Shown here one piece after another: positions 604-19,508 of a DNA stretch of 25,680 bases. This DNA comes from a virus (Duplodnaviria > Caudoviricetes). Location: the IMG/VR virus record IMGVR_UViG_3300012924_000025, positions 1 to 25,680 of that record; one strand, written 5' to 3'. Numbering within the stretch: the stretch's first letter is position 1; each line of letters opens with the position of its first letter. The position numbers were made by a program, and so were the translations under genes. The notes below the pieces were generated by a model. It was not told where the DNA came from, ran no database searches, and saw only the letters and a list, made by a program, of their open reading frames with translations.

Positions 604-612
604 TCACTCCTG

Positions 613-641
613 GGGAGGGGCCAATCCCGGCCCCTCCCTTT
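613..641 (+). terminator. GC-rich stem-loop, possible weak intrinsic terminator or processing site
   Basis: Perfect 10-bp stem GGGAGGGGCC (613-622) / GGCCCCTCCC (629-638), loop AATCCC, then only TTT. Sits in an intergenic gap. Confidence 0.5.
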
Positions 642-657
642 CCTCTAAGGATCCCAA

Positions 658-1083
658 ATGTCCAAACACACCAAGGTACAACCAATCATGGGTGAGCCAT
701 TCGATGTCAACCAGATCGACGAAGAGTTTGCGGGGCTCGTCCAAGAAGCACATGACCGATCTGGAGAGAGGATTGGCCGTCTCCGCCTTCCAAGAGGGGA
801 TGGCGATCAAGATCATAGCCAGGGCGCTCCGGCGCAGTCCAGGGACGATCAGGGAATTCCTCCAGAAGCGCCTGCGGAGGACCCAATTAACCCCTCGTAC
901 TACCGACAGCACCCAAGTGGGGTTGAATGCATCGACGTCGTCGAGCACATGACTTACAATCTCGGCACTGCGTATGCATATATCTGGCGGGCTGGGAAGA
1001 AGGGGGATATCGTAGAAGATCTCCGCAAGGCCCAGTGGTATCTGGACCGGGAGATCATGCGGCTGACGAGGGCGCCGAGATGA
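658..1083 (+). CDS. DUF3310 (SaV / T7 gp1.7 nucleotide-kinase-like) protein with disordered N-terminal extension
   Basis: C-terminal DPINPSYY..SGVECIDV...NLGTAYAYIWRAGKKG..EDLRKAQWYLDREI is the typical DUF3310 signature. SD AAGGA precedes the ATG. Confidence 0.85.
   Translation: MSKHTKVQPIMGEPFDVNQIDEEFAGLVQEAHDRSGERIGRLRLPRGDGDQDHSQGAPAQSRDDQGIPPEAPAEDPINPSYYRQHPSGVECIDVVEHMTYNLGTAYAYIWRAGKKGDIVEDLRKAQWYLDREIMRLTRAPR
704..952 (+). CDS. overprinted (+1 frame) helix-turn-helix protein, 82 aa (alternative start 752)
   Basis: KHMTDLERGLAVSAFQEGMAIKIIARALRRSPGTIREFLQKR matches the HTH_38/IS30-type pattern HLT..ER........G.S...IAR.L.RS..TI.RE..R. GGTGAG lies 7 nt before ATG 704. Confidence 0.65.
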   Translation: MSTRSTKSLRGSSKKHMTDLERGLAVSAFQEGMAIKIIARALRRSPGTIREFLQKRLRRTQLTPRTTDSTQVGLNASTSSST

Positions 1084-1307
1084 AACACGCAAGAGCCGAC
1101 TATGATCGTTTTCAAGATCCAGAAGGGATAATTCCTGCTGACGAGCCGGTGTTCTTACTTCGTGGTCAAGATAAATTGGCATGGCATGTGGTTAAGATAT
1201 ACGCATTCTGTGTTGGACTGACTGGTGACACTCATATGGCTAAGGTCTGCAAGGACTGGGCCAATGTGATGCGAGACTGGCCAAAGAAAAAGACACCTGA
1301 CTTATGA
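1080..1307 (+). CDS. hypothetical phage protein, 75 aa (DEPVFLLRxQD motif)
   Basis: ATGA overlaps with both neighbours. About 44% GC over 1101-1240. Confidence 0.75.
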   Translation: MKHARADYDRFQDPEGIIPADEPVFLLRGQDKLAWHVVKIYAFCVGLTGDTHMAKVCKDWANVMRDWPKKKTPDL

Positions 1308-2404
1308 AACCCATCCTCCTCGTCGGCGAACAACAAGGCGAGGCAGAGGCGAAGATCTCCCGAACCTTCGTCGGCACCACCGGGGCGGAACTATTGCGAA
1401 TGCTCCACGACGCGGGGGTCATTGAATTGACCCCCTCGGACCGTTCCTGCCTCTCTCGCTTCTATCGCTCTCGCGACCCCTGGACCCTGGACGCAATCTG
1501 GCGGGCCCATCCCGAAGTCTTCCGAACCAACGTGTTCCAACAATTCCCTCCAGCCAACGATCTCACATTCTTCTGCGGCCCGAAGAAGGAGGGGATCCCC
1601 GGCTACCCTATGCTCGCCAAGTCCAAATACATCCGAAAGGAATTCCAACATGAACTCGATCGCCTCGGCAATGAAATCCTTGCGCACGATCCTAATCTCA
1701 TCATCTGTCTCGGTAACACTGCTCTTTGGGCTCTGGCTGGCCGGACAGGCATCACGAAGCTTCGGGGTACCACCTGCGTTTCTACTCATCTTGTGTCTGG
1801 CTACAAGCTGCTACTTACGTACCACCCGTCTGCGGTCACGCGCCAATGGGAACTCCGCCCCGCCACCGTCGCGGATCTCTCCAAGGCCCTGAAGGAAAAG
1901 GACCACCCCGATGTCCGACGCCCCCAATGCACCATCTGGATTGAACCCAGCCTTGACGACATTGCTAGATTCATCCGAGATCACATCGTTGGATGCAAAA
2001 TCCTTTCTGTTGATATTGAGACTTCTGGCAATCAGATCACATGCATTGGATTCGCTCCACGACCAGACCTTGCGCTTGTTGTTCCAATCCATGACTCCCG
2101 GAACGCGAAGGGAAGCTATTGGCCATCTCCGATCGATGAGCGGCGGTGTTGGGAGCTTATACGTCCGGTCCTTGAGGCTACAGAAATACCTAAGCTCTTC
2201 CAGAACGGACTCTACGATATTCCCTTCATCCTCAGGACAACGGGGATCAGAGTAATGGGGGCGACGGAGGACACCATGCTTCTGCACCATGCCTTGCAAC
2301 CAGAAAGCCTGAAGAGCCTTGGGTTCCTGGGGTCGATCTATACGGATCACGGGCCTTGGAAGAGCGAGCGGAAGGGAACCGACACAATAAAGCGTGATGA
2401 ATGA
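1304..2404 (+). CDS. uracil-DNA-glycosylase-like domain fused to DEDD 3'-5' exonuclease (N-terminal part of split DNA polymerase A)
   Basis: Family-4-like UDG motifs LVGEQQG..E, FVG..G, TNV, ICLGNTA, TYHPSA. Exo I VDIET and Exo II FQNGLYD, then DTMLLHH and SLGFLGS. Confidence 0.85.
   Translation: MKPILLVGEQQGEAEAKISRTFVGTTGAELLRMLHDAGVIELTPSDRSCLSRFYRSRDPWTLDAIWRAHPEVFRTNVFQQFPPANDLTFFCGPKKEGIPGYPMLAKSKYIRKEFQHELDRLGNEILAHDPNLIICLGNTALWALAGRTGITKLRGTTCVSTHLVSGYKLLLTYHPSAVTRQWELRPATVADLSKALKEKDHPDVRRPQCTIWIEPSLDDIARFIRDHIVGCKILSVDIETSGNQITCIGFAPRPDLALVVPIHDSRNAKGSYWPSPIDERRCWELIRPVLEATEIPKLFQNGLYDIPFILRTTGIRVMGATEDTMLLHHALQPESLKSLGFLGSIYTDHGPWKSERKGTDTIKRDE
1650..1892 (+). CDS. overprinted (+1) putative two-TM membrane protein, 80 aa
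   Basis: AAAGGA lies 8 nt before the ATG. Two hydrophobic segments and a basic tail. Host-frame codons end in T in 24/61 here versus 5/60 at the gene start. Confidence 0.55.
   Translation: MNSIASAMKSLRTILISSSVSVTLLFGLWLAGQASRSFGVPPAFLLILCLATSCYLRTTRLRSRANGNSAPPPSRISPRP
1911..2255 (+). CDS. overprinted (+1) Leu-rich hypothetical protein, 114 aa
   Basis: AAGGA lies 8 nt before the ATG. About 20/47 host codons end in T over roughly 1952-2092. Confidence 0.45.
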   Translation: MSDAPNAPSGLNPALTTLLDSSEITSLDAKSFLLILRLLAIRSHALDSLHDQTLRLLFQSMTPGTRREAIGHLRSMSGGVGSLYVRSLRLQKYLSSSRTDSTIFPSSSGQRGSE

Positions 2405-3900
2405 GAATAATCCAAACCTCCGATTGCACACCAGATGAAATCCCCTCCCAGGAAGAACGCGATTGGGTCTACAACGGACTCGACTGCTGCATCACAGCGG
2501 AGATTTTGGATGTGCTACTTCCTCAACTAGATGACCACACAACCAAAACATATGCCTTTAGCCGTGCATTGCAGGGACCTGTTCTCGAGATGCAACTGCG
2601 GGGAATACTTGTGGACCAAGCCCGACGCCACGAGGTCATCGAGGATTACTACGACAAAATAGATCTCCTCGCGGATCAACTCGATGAGATCGTCCTGAAT
2701 GGGGTTGGCATGCCCACCTTCAACTGGCGCTCCAACCCCGACCTCCAGCGCCTGTTCTACGAACACCTCGCCATCCCAGTGATCCGCAACCGCGGCCGAC
2801 CCACGTGTGATCACAAAGCCCTGGAGAAAATGCAACTCTATGTGGTGGCCCGGCCGATTGTGAACCGTCTCTTGGTGATGCGTGAACTGCAAAAAAAGAT
2901 CGATTTCCTCAAAACCGGAGTAGACCCTGATGGACGAATCCGCACCTCTTACAACATCCCTGGAACAAACACAGGCCGATTTAGCTCAAGCTATAGCGAA
3001 TTTGGCACTGGCGGAAATCTACAAAACGTCGAGGAGAGCCTTAGAAGCGTTTTCATCAGCGATCCGGGATGGAAGTTCGCCAAGTTCGACGCCAAAAGTG
3101 GGGAATCCTACATCGTCGGGGCCATCGAGGGCAACCTCTTCGACGATTGGAGATATCTAGATGCAGTCGAATCTGGAGACGTGCATACAACGGTTGCTCG
3201 AATGTGTTGGCCCGACCTTGGGTGGACAGGTGACTTGGCAAGAGACACGGAAATCGCCGAACGACCATTCTACCGACATTACAGTTACCGTTTCATGTGC
3301 AAGAAACTCGGCCATGGAAGCAACTACGGAGGCCAGCCCCAAACCCTCGCCATGCAAACCACCCTCCCCGAGCCCATCGTTATCGGATTTCAGCCTAAGT
3401 ACTTCGCGGCATTTCCTGCCCATCTACGATGGCACGAATGGACCGATGATCAACTACGAAGAATTGGATTCCTTGTTACGCTCACAGGGCGTAGGCGTTG
3501 GTTCTTCGGTCGACGTACTGAAGCATCCACTCTCCGGGAGGCTATCGCTTACGATCCACAGGGAAGCCTAGCCGACATCGTAAACCGCGCAATGCTCCGC
3601 ATCTGGCGCAAGCGCCCGTGCCTCCTGATGATGCAAGACCACGACGCGCTGACATTTATGTACCGAGAAGAAATGGAAGATGAAATCATACCAACGCTCC
3701 AGCGAATGCTCCCCGAGGAGATCCCCCTTCAGCACGGCCGGGCAATGTGCATCCCATACGATTGCAAAATAGGCTGGAACAAGGGGGAATACCATGCTGA
3801 AGAAAACCCAGACGGGCTCAGGAACTTTGGGGGAGGGGACAATCGAAGACGTCAGCCGAAAGTGTCCCTCGTGGATCGATTGCTTCATAGAAAACACTGA
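2401..3900 (+). CDS. polA: DNA polymerase family A, polymerase part (begins with Exo III motif)
   Basis: YNGLD (Exo III), FNWRS, TGRFSS, NLQN, motif A DAKSGE, motif B RFMCKKLGHGSNYG, TLTGRRR, PQGSLAD, motif C QDHDAL. Confidence 0.95.
   Translation: MRIIQTSDCTPDEIPSQEERDWVYNGLDCCITAEILDVLLPQLDDHTTKTYAFSRALQGPVLEMQLRGILVDQARRHEVIEDYYDKIDLLADQLDEIVLNGVGMPTFNWRSNPDLQRLFYEHLAIPVIRNRGRPTCDHKALEKMQLYVVARPIVNRLLVMRELQKKIDFLKTGVDPDGRIRTSYNIPGTNTGRFSSSYSEFGTGGNLQNVEESLRSVFISDPGWKFAKFDAKSGESYIVGAIEGNLFDDWRYLDAVESGDVHTTVARMCWPDLGWTGDLARDTEIAERPFYRHYSYRFMCKKLGHGSNYGGQPQTLAMQTTLPEPIVIGFQPKYFAAFPAHLRWHEWTDDQLRRIGFLVTLTGRRRWFFGRRTEASTLREAIAYDPQGSLADIVNRAMLRIWRKRPCLLMMQDHDALTFMYREEMEDEIIPTLQRMLPEEIPLQHGRAMCIPYDCKIGWNKGEYHAEENPDGLRNFGGGDNRRRQPKVSLVDRLLHRKH
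2930..3160 (+). CDS. overprinted (+1) helical hypothetical protein, 76 aa
   Basis: GGAG lies 9 nt before the ATG. Amphipathic helix LEQTQADLAQAIANLALAEIYK. A/T-ending host codons about 24/47 versus about 7/42 at 2701-2826. Confidence 0.45.
   Translation: MDESAPLTTSLEQTQADLAQAIANLALAEIYKTSRRALEAFSSAIRDGSSPSSTPKVGNPTSSGPSRATSSTIGDI
3161..3571 (+). CDS. overprinted (+1) hypothetical protein, 136 aa (possible second start at 3446)
   Basis: GGAG lies 8 nt before the ATG, which abuts the TAG of the previous +1 ORF (TAGATG). Confidence 0.4.
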   Translation: MQSNLETCIQRLLECVGPTLGGQVTWQETRKSPNDHSTDITVTVSCARNSAMEATTEASPKPSPCKPPSPSPSLSDFSLSTSRHFLPIYDGTNGPMINYEELDSLLRSQGVGVGSSVDVLKHPLSGRLSLTIHREA

Positions 3901-17953: not shown

Positions 17954-19074
17954 TAGCTAAACCCAGGCCACATTCCGCCCCAATCGAATCCGGTGTTGTA
18001 TGGGCCTGAGGCCCCATCGGTGTAATCGACGCCTCGCATCCGGATCCAATCAGGGATGACGTTGTTCACAGTCAGCGCCTCATTGCCATCGTTCCCTCGG
18101 GCGATCCGGATGACCTCGTTGCCTTGGGTGATTACAAGGTTCGAGAGGGACTTGTCCCCGGTGAGGGCTTTGCAAAGGGCCCCGCCGAGTACGAAGGCGT
18201 AGGCTTCTTGGAAGTCGTCATCGAAGACGTTTTCATCGGTGATGTTCTTCACGTAGTTCAAAAGGCCGAATTCTTGGTTGGTGAGGATTACTCGCTGGTC
18301 CCCTGCGGCGGCGGTGAAGGTGAGGTTGAAGGTGGCACCGGTGCCGAGGCCGGTTGTGCCTGTGCCGCCAAGGTTGCCTGGGTTGGGACCCTGAGCGGAT
18401 GGGTTCGCAACCGGCGCGAAGTAGCTCCCGGAGAATGGAACGACTTCGTTTGGGATGATAGGGACAATAGCGACAGAAGTGACAACCCCAAGAGCACCAA
18501 CCCCAGTGACCTGCAAAGTAGCTGGGCATCCAACTGGGGGAAGGCCTTGTGCACCTTGTGCGAGAGTGATAAGATCGCCCAGAGCATAGCCGGCGCCTCC
18601 TGAGGCCACAGTGGCAGCGGTGACGGAGAAGAATTGGTCGACGGCGACTTTGAACTGGACTGGCGGGCCTTGCCAGAACGAGGCTGCGCCACCGGTCACG
18701 GCGGTGGTGATGGGAACGCCGCCAGCGAAGCCAGTTGCGGTTTGAGGGGTGATCCAACAGGCGCGGATGCAATCGAAGGGGTATTGGTATTCGTACGCCC
18801 ACGGCGGGGCCGGTTGGCCCTTTTGCCATAGTTGGGTCGCGGGGGAGGTGTTCTCTGGGGTGCCGGGGATGGAGGTGATGAAGTTGAGGGCGATGGTTTG
18901 GAACGCGAAGGACCAAGGGGCCATCCGAAGCAAACGTCGGCGGAAGGAGTCGTAGATGATGTTACTCTGAATCGCTTCGTTGCTTCCATTGCTAGCAAGC
19001 TCTGCAGCCGTAACTGTGGTCCTAGACCCAAAGGTTTGCAAAGCACGATTCACCATGTCTACTTTGGCAGTCAT
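17953..19074 (-). CDS. tail tubular protein A (adaptor, T7 gp11-like) with beta-rich insertion
   Basis: VDMVNRAL..FG, YDSFRRRLL..APWSFA, WAYEYQYPFDCIR, FDDDF..A....L...L...LTG, DWIRMR. Confidence 0.88.
   Translation of the reverse strand: MTAKVDMVNRALQTFGSRTTVTAAELASNGSNEAIQSNIIYDSFRRRLLRMAPWSFAFQTIALNFITSIPGTPENTSPATQLWQKGQPAPPWAYEYQYPFDCIRACWITPQTATGFAGGVPITTAVTGGAASFWQGPPVQFKVAVDQFFSVTAATVASGGAGYALGDLITLAQGAQGLPPVGCPATLQVTGVGALGVVTSVAIVPIIPNEVVPFSGSYFAPVANPSAQGPNPGNLGGTGTTGLGTGATFNLTFTAAAGDQRVILTNQEFGLLNYVKNITDENVFDDDFQEAYAFVLGGALCKALTGDKSLSNLVITQGNEVIRIARGNDGNEALTVNNVIPDWIRMRGVDYTDGASGPYNTGFDWGGMWPGFS
18288..18587 (-). CDS. overprinted (+1) single-TM protein, 99 aa
   Basis: Perfect AGGAGG (18601-18596) lies 8 nt before ATG 18587. 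TM-like SLGLVLLGLSLLSLLSL. Host codons end in T over roughly 18460-18587. Confidence 0.55.
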   Translation of the reverse strand: MLWAILSLSHKVHKAFPQLDAQLLCRSLGLVLLGLSLLSLLSLSSQTKSFHSPGATSRRLRTHPLRVPTQATLAAQAQPASAPVPPSTSPSPPPQGTSE

Positions 19075-19508
19075 TTAAGCCATCCCCAATTACGGCCGCT
19101 GCGAATATAACTGATAGCGGTCCAAGACATGTCATATGCTTTGGCTATAGAGGCGACAGAATAGCCTTCGACGATGAATTGACGAATGTCTCTCACATCC
19201 TGCTCAGTAAGCTTTGCCTGCCCTTGGCGTTCTCCAAATACATGGCGACCTTTAGCGATCTCATCATCTTTGTTGTCTTTATGTGTTCCTAAGAATAGAT
19301 GCTTTGGATTGATGCAAGGCTTGTTATCACAAGTGTGACAGACTATCATACCTTTAGGTACAGGGCCTTTGTGGTGCTCAAATGAAACTACGTGAGCACC
19401 ACGGTCGCAAATAGCACCATAACCTGAGCCTGACATAGCGCCAGTAAACACCCAACAGTTGTTAGGCGCCATCGCTATCCTATCGAGCAATTTACTGGCG
19501 ATGTCCAT
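19071..19508 (-). CDS. free-standing HNH homing endonuclease with C-terminal HTH
   Basis: CWVFTGA...GYG, AHVVSF, VCHTCDNKPCINPKHLFLGTHKDNKDD, AKLTEQDVRDIR. About 45% GC over 19141-19380. Confidence 0.92.
   Translation of the reverse strand: MDIASKLLDRIAMAPNNCWVFTGAMSGSGYGAICDRGAHVVSFEHHKGPVPKGMIVCHTCDNKPCINPKHLFLGTHKDNKDDEIAKGRHVFGERQGQAKLTEQDVRDIRQFIVEGYSVASIAKAYDMSWTAISYIRSGRNWGWLK

Follow-up and report, generated by a model that had tools for sequence, protein, structure and literature searches.

A helix-turn-helix gene nested out of frame within a phage DUF3310 gene

Do two completely overlapping reading frames of a phage genome both encode proteins and, if so, which of the two is the newcomer? 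The question is raised by a 25.7-kb virus record (hereafter, the window, that is, the whole stretch of DNA that was analysed), in which an open reading frame (ORF) with a C-terminal DUF3310 domain encompasses a second, +1 frame ORF that encodes a helix-turn-helix (HTH) domain. Fully nested genes with comparative proof for both frames are rare among the tailed phages, and the nested frame is usually viewed as the new one; here, we propose the opposite. In the literature covered, with most subscription journals and supplements lying outside, no description of this locus was found. Our overall conclusion, which we consider probable, is that the two ORFs are a conserved, fully overlapping gene pair, the HTH protein likely being produced from its own internal ribosome-binding site (RBS) and likely acting as a DNA-binding regulator.

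The overlapping frames and their genomic setting

The plus strand of the window encodes a DUF669-like protein (weak match), a uracil-DNA-glycosylase/exonuclease (UDG), a family A DNA polymerase and a primase-like protein, and the minus strand carries tail genes, a gene set that suggests a short-tailed phage. The UDG-exonuclease protein of the nearest cultured phage is only 36% identical. The complete relatives have genomes of ~50 kb; a tyrosine integrase is absent from all five of these (the control matched in 14 of 14 cases), and none of the five showed a match for a phage RNA polymerase, but the control for the latter search likewise produced no match. Two candidate cultured relatives were rejected, namely, Caulobacter phage Kuura, in which the slot holds a gene judged by eye to be unrelated, and a stretch of Microcystis phage Mel-JY34 that had no profile match.

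Several features of the surroundings can be recorded in their own right. The DNA polymerase A of the window is split (1304-3900) into a UDG-plus-3'-5' exonuclease gene, with a weak match to the N-termini of SPO1-type polymerases, and a polymerase gene. A variable slot separates the DUF gene from the UDG gene: the window has a 75-aa ORF there (1080-1307), one contig of run X1 skips positions 1083-1313, and relatives carry other small genes. Positions 442-603 contain a 53-aa ORF without a Pfam or PHROG match, the C-terminal half of which reappears 5' of a stand-alone HTH gene in one relative (L079). Among the tail genes lies a free-standing gene (19071-19508, minus strand) for an HNH_3 endonuclease, the C-terminal domain of which is HTH_38-like.

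The outer, frame-0 gene (658..1083, plus strand; 141 aa), which is preceded by a Shine-Dalgarno (SD)-like site (646..651, plus strand; predicted duplex, -5.8 kcal/mol), consists, by ORF analysis, domain search and structure modelling, of a leader, a linker and a DUF3310 domain. The conserved, acidic leader (658..756, plus strand; pI 4.6) contains a PF motif and a predicted helix at residues 17-34; in the AlphaFold2 model of the entire protein, the pLDDT is below 50 at residues 32-68, over the HTH, and the DUF3310 domain is helical. The original prediction regarded everything upstream of the domain as a low-complexity leader, which fits the poorly predicted linker over the HTH but not the first ~33 residues, a conserved module that is present also in relatives without the HTH. 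It was right in that there is no later start before the domain, frame 0 lacking ATG, GTG and TTG codons between ATG 688 and DUF3310. The same PF leader is found attached to DUF3310, to DUF6378 and, in L039 (~2187-2504), to a domain that looks unrelated on visual inspection, with examples in the window (658-756), L039, L025, L116, L148 and L181; possibly, it is a portable targeting or interaction peptide.

The DUF3310 domain (880..1071, plus strand) is identified by Pfam, PHROG and fold matches: residues 79-130 match PF11753 with E 1.3e-8 and 35.2 bits (cut-off 24 bits), the protein matches a PHROG labelled 'nucleotide kinase' with E 2.4e-23, and the fold matches are SaV-like. One paper implicates DUF3310 in the activity of T7 gp1.7 as a nucleotide kinase and describes the DUF3310 protein Waterfoul gp47 as cytotoxic (PMC9339283), and another lists DUF3310 as the domain of the lactococcal SaV (PMC8306868). 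For the frame-0 protein, nucleotide kinase activity is putative, being an annotation transfer.

The nested +1 gene (704..952, plus strand), the start of which lies 7 nt downstream of an internal SD-like site (690..696, plus strand; -8.3 kcal/mol), codes for a protein of 82 aa (pI 11.9) with a single HTH_38-like domain; both this frame and the outer one were recovered at the coordinates originally given for them. The HTH core (743..880, plus strand) comprises three predicted helices (~758-793, 806-826, 839-880) in the AlphaFold2 model; read in frame 0, the same stretch is a linker that, by the comparison of pN/pS in each frame, is free of amino acid constraint. The C-terminal tail of the nested gene overlies DUF3310 and is not conserved. 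The search against HTH_38 (PF13936) that the original prediction proposed did yield a match, at residues 14-49 of the complete ORF (E 8.5e-6; at 25.9 bits, slightly short of the cut-off), with the 52-aa core slightly exceeding the 27-bit cut-off (27.2 bits). The HTH of relatives reaches up to 36.4 bits, and 40 of the 46 aligned members match at E<=0.01. The core is modelled with helices at residues 11-22, 27-33 and 38-51 (mean pLDDT 86.5), and its best PDB match by sequence is 2LVS (E 6.8e-12), the DNA-binding protein Cbp2 (PMC3597662). A Foldseek search with the model returned no PDB match at E<=0.001; the top rows are HTH domains throughout, yet with E>0.1.

The HTH_38 domain is associated with the N-terminus of IS30-type transposases. 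Nevertheless, the notion of an IS30 element does not hold up: the ORF encodes a mere 82 aa, without a Pfam match to a transposase core. Among the longest 25 of the 299 inverted pairs, none brackets 704-952.

Directly 5' of the RBS of the outer gene, there is a hairpin rich in GC, with a pyrimidine tract after it (612..639, plus strand; -25.9 kcal/mol), that is likely to be a terminator or a processing site; it is not among the results of a consensus terminator scan. In relatives, the equivalent hairpin (for example, L023 2925-2960, L088 2043-2078 and L148 1927-1962) has a loop of six bases that hardly varies (GCAAAT or GCGAAT), from which the loop in the window differs, with the pyrimidine tract and the RBS next to it. 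Such a hairpin is present in 40 of the 50 nested, 19 of the 54 HTH-less and 2 of the 4 stand-alone loci (defined below) compared with 1 of 106 UDG gene bodies, and the hairpin region has no Rfam match in the five loci tested. The hairpin of the relatives could serve for processing or as a terminator that is read through with the help of an antitermination factor. Within the window, a search for operators revealed no convincing repeat family, and a promoter scan returned two weak promoter-like matches.

Conservation of both frames among relatives

The loci for comparison were collected chiefly via the neighbouring UDG-exonuclease gene (28 loci, the top-ranking 80 of 521 viral and 80 of 448 metagenome matches, and five loci from genome contigs), so that most were not selected for the presence of the HTH; smaller searches used both overlapping proteins and the upstream gene as queries. 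Exact duplicates were discarded, as was the window's own copy; the window itself was counted. Loci scoring at least 15 bits with an iterated HTH profile were taken as HTH loci, 54 distinct ones including the window, and the UDG tree covers 107 loci (the 111 with at least 650 nt upstream, after exclusion of three distant loci and a truncated one).

The two fully overlapping genes that the original prediction envisaged are indeed the rule, with the +1 frame residing inside an open leader-linker-DUF frame in 50 of the 54 HTH loci, that is, in 49 besides the window. The C-terminal domain is DUF3310 in 43 of these and DUF6378-like in seven (E 1e-3 to 3.5e-6 in the three tested), and the leader motif lies upstream in frame 0 in all 50. 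It is missing there in the remaining four loci (L074, L079, L080, L096), which have stops in frame 0 and a stand-alone, leaderless HTH gene with its own start; in these, a DUF6378-like gene starts 3' of the HTH core. In over half of the loci in the UDG tree (54 of 107; 34 of these with a DUF6378-like gene), the flank retrieved contains no HTH, so the HTH looks dispensable. In 17 distinct HTH-less loci, the PF leader is joined directly to DUF6378, yielding proteins ~40 residues shorter than the nested type (PF-to-HGxF distance of 28-43 aa compared with 66-88 aa in the seven nested DUF6378 genes). Loci with a nested HTH, without an HTH and with a stand-alone HTH are interleaved across the UDG tree. 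One locus (L001) shares with the window an identical leader and a 96% identical UDG fragment, whereas its HTH has diverged and DUF6378 replaces DUF3310; the exchange of the two domains downstream of a common leader points to a slot for swappable cargo. Separately, the DUF3310 genes of unrelated phages (L002-L017) have an in-frame, N-terminal HTH-like segment (HTH_11 match with E 8e-4 in L008) that does not score with the nested-HTH profile and, judging by these matches, is a second, independent pairing of an HTH with DUF3310.

The maintenance of both frames can be gleaned from the absence of stops. The 50 nested HTH cores contain no frame-0 stop, compared with 99.7 expected when each HTH is synonymously recoded with the codon usage of its own locus; for 14 representatives with less than 60% DNA identity, the numbers are 0 and 26.9. 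As a control, the neighbouring UDG-exonuclease gene was read in the corresponding frame, which is open in ~7% of segments. Because frame 0 stays open in 28% of the synonymous recodings of the HTH of the window itself, the window alone is no proof of dual coding, and it is the relatives that supply it.

The two frames differ in the constraint on the amino acid sequence. Over the HTH core, pN/pS in three bins of sequence identity is 0.25, 0.31 and 0.48 in the +1 frame versus 1.09, 1.60 and 1.25 in frame 0 (pooled, non-independent pairs from 49 loci, L167 being excluded for an indel). Strain variants on contigs point the same way, the changes being silent in 6 of the 7 changed codons in the +1 frame compared with 1 of 8 in frame 0. 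Thus, the HTH sequence is conserved and frame 0 is merely kept free of stops. Both frames are maintained, and amino acid selection over the overlap acts on the HTH; we have little hesitation in considering the dual coding real and conserved. An indel that would explain the two frames as an assembly error, another possibility raised at the outset, was sought and rejected, given that none occurs in 704-952 on contigs from four runs (30 of 30 bins covered by X1, perhaps the window's own source, 24 by X2, 13 by X3 and 12 by X4) and that the 49 other loci share the layout.

Translation of the HTH frame and rival explanations

A +1 start codon precedes the HTH domain in each of the 50 nested loci, and in 44, the leader contains an SD-led +1 ATG (-5 kcal/mol or below), compared with 4 of 17 HTH-less loci; the duplex score is loose, 42% of the 469 ATGs that lie out of frame within the UDG gene reaching -4, and real UDG starts score poorly (median -2.6). 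These ATGs fall at three offsets (32, 9 and 3 loci, with ATG 704 of the window in the nine-locus class), and in six nested loci (L040, L041, L060, L064, L132, L139), they are weak or missing. The contrast with the HTH-less loci is seen after clustering at 80% (22 of 27 versus 3 of 12) and 70% (12 of 16 versus 3 of 10, p 0.043), but is gone at 60% (8 of 12 versus 3 of 9, p 0.2). A +1 stop separates the leader motif from the HTH in 24 of the 50 nested loci and, in 21, is located no more than two codons 5' of the SD-led ATG; in those loci, this stop excludes a +1 shift occurring farther upstream. In agreement with the original observation that a canonical slippery heptamer is lacking, an in-phase X XXY YYZ is present in a single nested locus out of 50, and a permissive scan returned chiefly the conserved NPS codons. 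The combination of SD-led ATGs, preceding +1 stops and scarce heptamers makes internal initiation the best reading, and very probably, the HTH protein is made from a separate internal start.

The alternatives involving frameshifts or chance are all improbable to various degrees. The original prediction allowed for a -1 frameshift that yields an HTH-DUF3310 fusion. Ribosomes would then start at the +1 ATG and shift near 860-895, with the fusion as the main or a side product, and certain observations could be cited for this scheme, namely, the in-frame HTH-like segments of L002-L017, a non-canonical run that coincides, in 14 loci, with the conserved NPS codons, and a database protein from one contig (P0001) that reads as the HTH followed by frame 0. 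However, P0001 switches frame several times and therefore looks like a sequencing error, the HTH of L002-L017 is outside the nested-HTH profile, the best 150 profile matches include no clean in-frame HTH-DUF fusion, and the openness of frame 0 from the leader through the HTH would be left unexplained; given also the lack of a shared heptamer and of contig indels, we consider such a fusion quite improbable. A +1 shift that would join the leader to the HTH, without internal initiation, would account for the six nested loci without a good SD-led ATG and for a database protein (P0036) in which the leader is joined to a clipped HTH, but it faces the stops directly 5' of the ATG, the three different offsets of the SD-ATG pairs and the failure to find a shared shift motif, and we give it very little credence. 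Finally, the real genes might be limited to the HTH gene and a short DUF3310 gene that begins at ATT 886, the long frame 0 being fortuitous or an assembly error. A strong SD (-9.5 kcal/mol) at ATT 886, the lack of frame-0 amino acid constraint over the HTH and the recoding result for the window alone are all compatible with this reading, and 18 of the 50 nested loci likewise have an SD-led frame-0 start between the HTH motif and the domain. Nevertheless, this explanation is barely credible considering the absence of stops across 50 loci, the conservation of the leader in frame with the domain whether or not the HTH is present, the indel-free contigs, and the 16 of 50 loci that contain no ATG, GTG or TTG between the HTH motif and the domain.

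A different kind of alternative concerns not the expression but the nature of the HTH, which could be a remnant of a selfish, out-of-frame homing endonuclease insert that has lost its nuclease and persists as a passenger or a domesticated domain. There is a precedent, an out-of-frame HNH insert in a methylase of phage ShiLan (PMC11855218). The interleaving of the nested, HTH-less and stand-alone states fits this scenario, but ordinary module exchange fits as well, since either homing or module recombination would produce a patchy distribution on the UDG tree. The HTH profile weakly aligns with the C-terminal HTH of the HNH_3 protein of the window (pairwise E 4.5e-5, probability 69%), so that an out-of-frame HNH relic is conceivable, and the HTH of one relative (L040) matches a PHROG labelled HNH endonuclease (E 0.002); the Pfam matches of the window ORF and of 46 cores are, however, to HTH families only, with no HNH nuclease. 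Furthermore, the +1 ORFs are short, ending 53-112 aa past the HTH motif (54 loci), with tails over the conserved DUF domain; the start and stop of the HTH gene lie outside the extra segment; purifying selection on the HTH is ongoing; and most of the short relatives described in the next section are single-HTH proteins, many with a shared start motif. On balance, a homing remnant is an unlikely, although not a negligible, explanation.

Origin and likely role of the nested gene, and comparison with known systems

An index-free profile search with the HTH retrieves 1,848 proteins at E<=0.001, and 43 of the best 150 are no longer than 135 aa; most of these 43 contain a single HTH and many share the start motif, with unrelated tails. 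By these profile matches, the HTH belongs to a broader family of small proteins with a single HTH. It is poorly visible otherwise: tblastn with two queries found no match among 50,697 phage records, a word-indexed search with the HTH alignment gave two proteins even though the frame-0 protein is present in the database, and few nested-type HTH calls occur among the short matches within the best 150 of 1,848. A likely regulator is thus mostly missed by gene callers.

The breadth of this family, the amino acid selection on the HTH frame and the existence of the leader-DUF gene without an HTH together make the frame-0 linker, most likely, the new part. Hence, the polarity is probably the reverse of that in the original prediction, in which the HTH was overprinted on DUF3310, and the HTH would be the old gene. 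In the HTH tree (midpoint root, 45 columns, long branches), the four stand-alone genes group (support 87) within the nested diversity, and nested members are found on both sides of the deepest split, hinting that the stand-alone genes are derived.

Under the scenario that we favour, an HTH segment of ~40 codons would have entered, or been captured by, a pre-existing leader-DUF6378/DUF3310 gene and would have been tolerated because frame 0 reads it as a floppy linker. Ribosomes would load on one mRNA at both 658 and 704. That the HTH protein is a DNA-binding regulator appears reasonably likely from its HTH_38-like domain and the match to Cbp2, so that its description as a candidate regulator can be kept; as a phage transcription regulator, it would most likely control the surrounding block of replication genes, which the gene pair opens. 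The DUF3310 protein, like its characterized relatives, would likely be involved in nucleotide supply or host takeover. More speculatively, and only as a tentative suggestion, the HTH might be a nuclease-free, frame-transparent cassette that is repeatedly gained, lost and un-nested in one gene slot and regulates the block that carries it. If so, it would represent a hidden class of accessory phage genes that travel inside the linker of a host protein, the C-terminal domain of which is swapped around the cassette. Because a single clade holds the HTH-less, nested (with two C-terminal domains) and un-nested states, the origin, persistence and resolution of the overlap are directly testable.

Several known systems resemble parts of this arrangement. 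The three-helix HTH_38 domains of the IS30 N-terminus, Cbp2 and the Tc3 transposase share profile matches and the three-helix model with the nested protein which, unlike these, is a single domain of 82 aa, with neither a transposase core nor a second HTH repeat. The outer protein resembles T7 gp1.7, SaV and Waterfoul gp47 in its C-terminal DUF3310 domain but differs from them in the clade-specific acidic leader and in the linker that encodes a second protein. Lambda Rz/Rz1 is an internal same-strand overlap. So are gene E within gene D of phiX174 and the spacer of the hepatitis B polymerase (PMC8227390). With phiX174 E/D, the present pair shares a gene that is wholly contained within another one, in a shifted frame and with its own start, and with the hepatitis B spacer, a linker frame that bridges older domains across another gene. 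However, the nested gene of phiX174 arose de novo whereas, in the present pair, homologs of the nested gene are widespread and the linker of the outer gene is the likely novelty, and in contrast to both systems, overlap-free and overlap-resolved relatives coexist. As in the ShiLan methylase, an extra segment is stop-free and disordered in the frame of the host protein and encodes a recognizable protein in the other frame, its distribution among relatives is patchy, and related ORFs are free-standing upstream in other phages. In contrast to ShiLan, the hidden product is a lone HTH without a nuclease, the start is SD-led within the leader of the host gene (the ShiLan insert has no detectable RBS), both the start and the stop fall beyond the extra segment, the C-terminal domain is swapped between DUF3310 and DUF6378, and selection on both frames is measured across 50 loci. 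Combining a stop-free insert with the lack of a nuclease, the locus works in a ShiLan-like manner without being classed as a member of that group.
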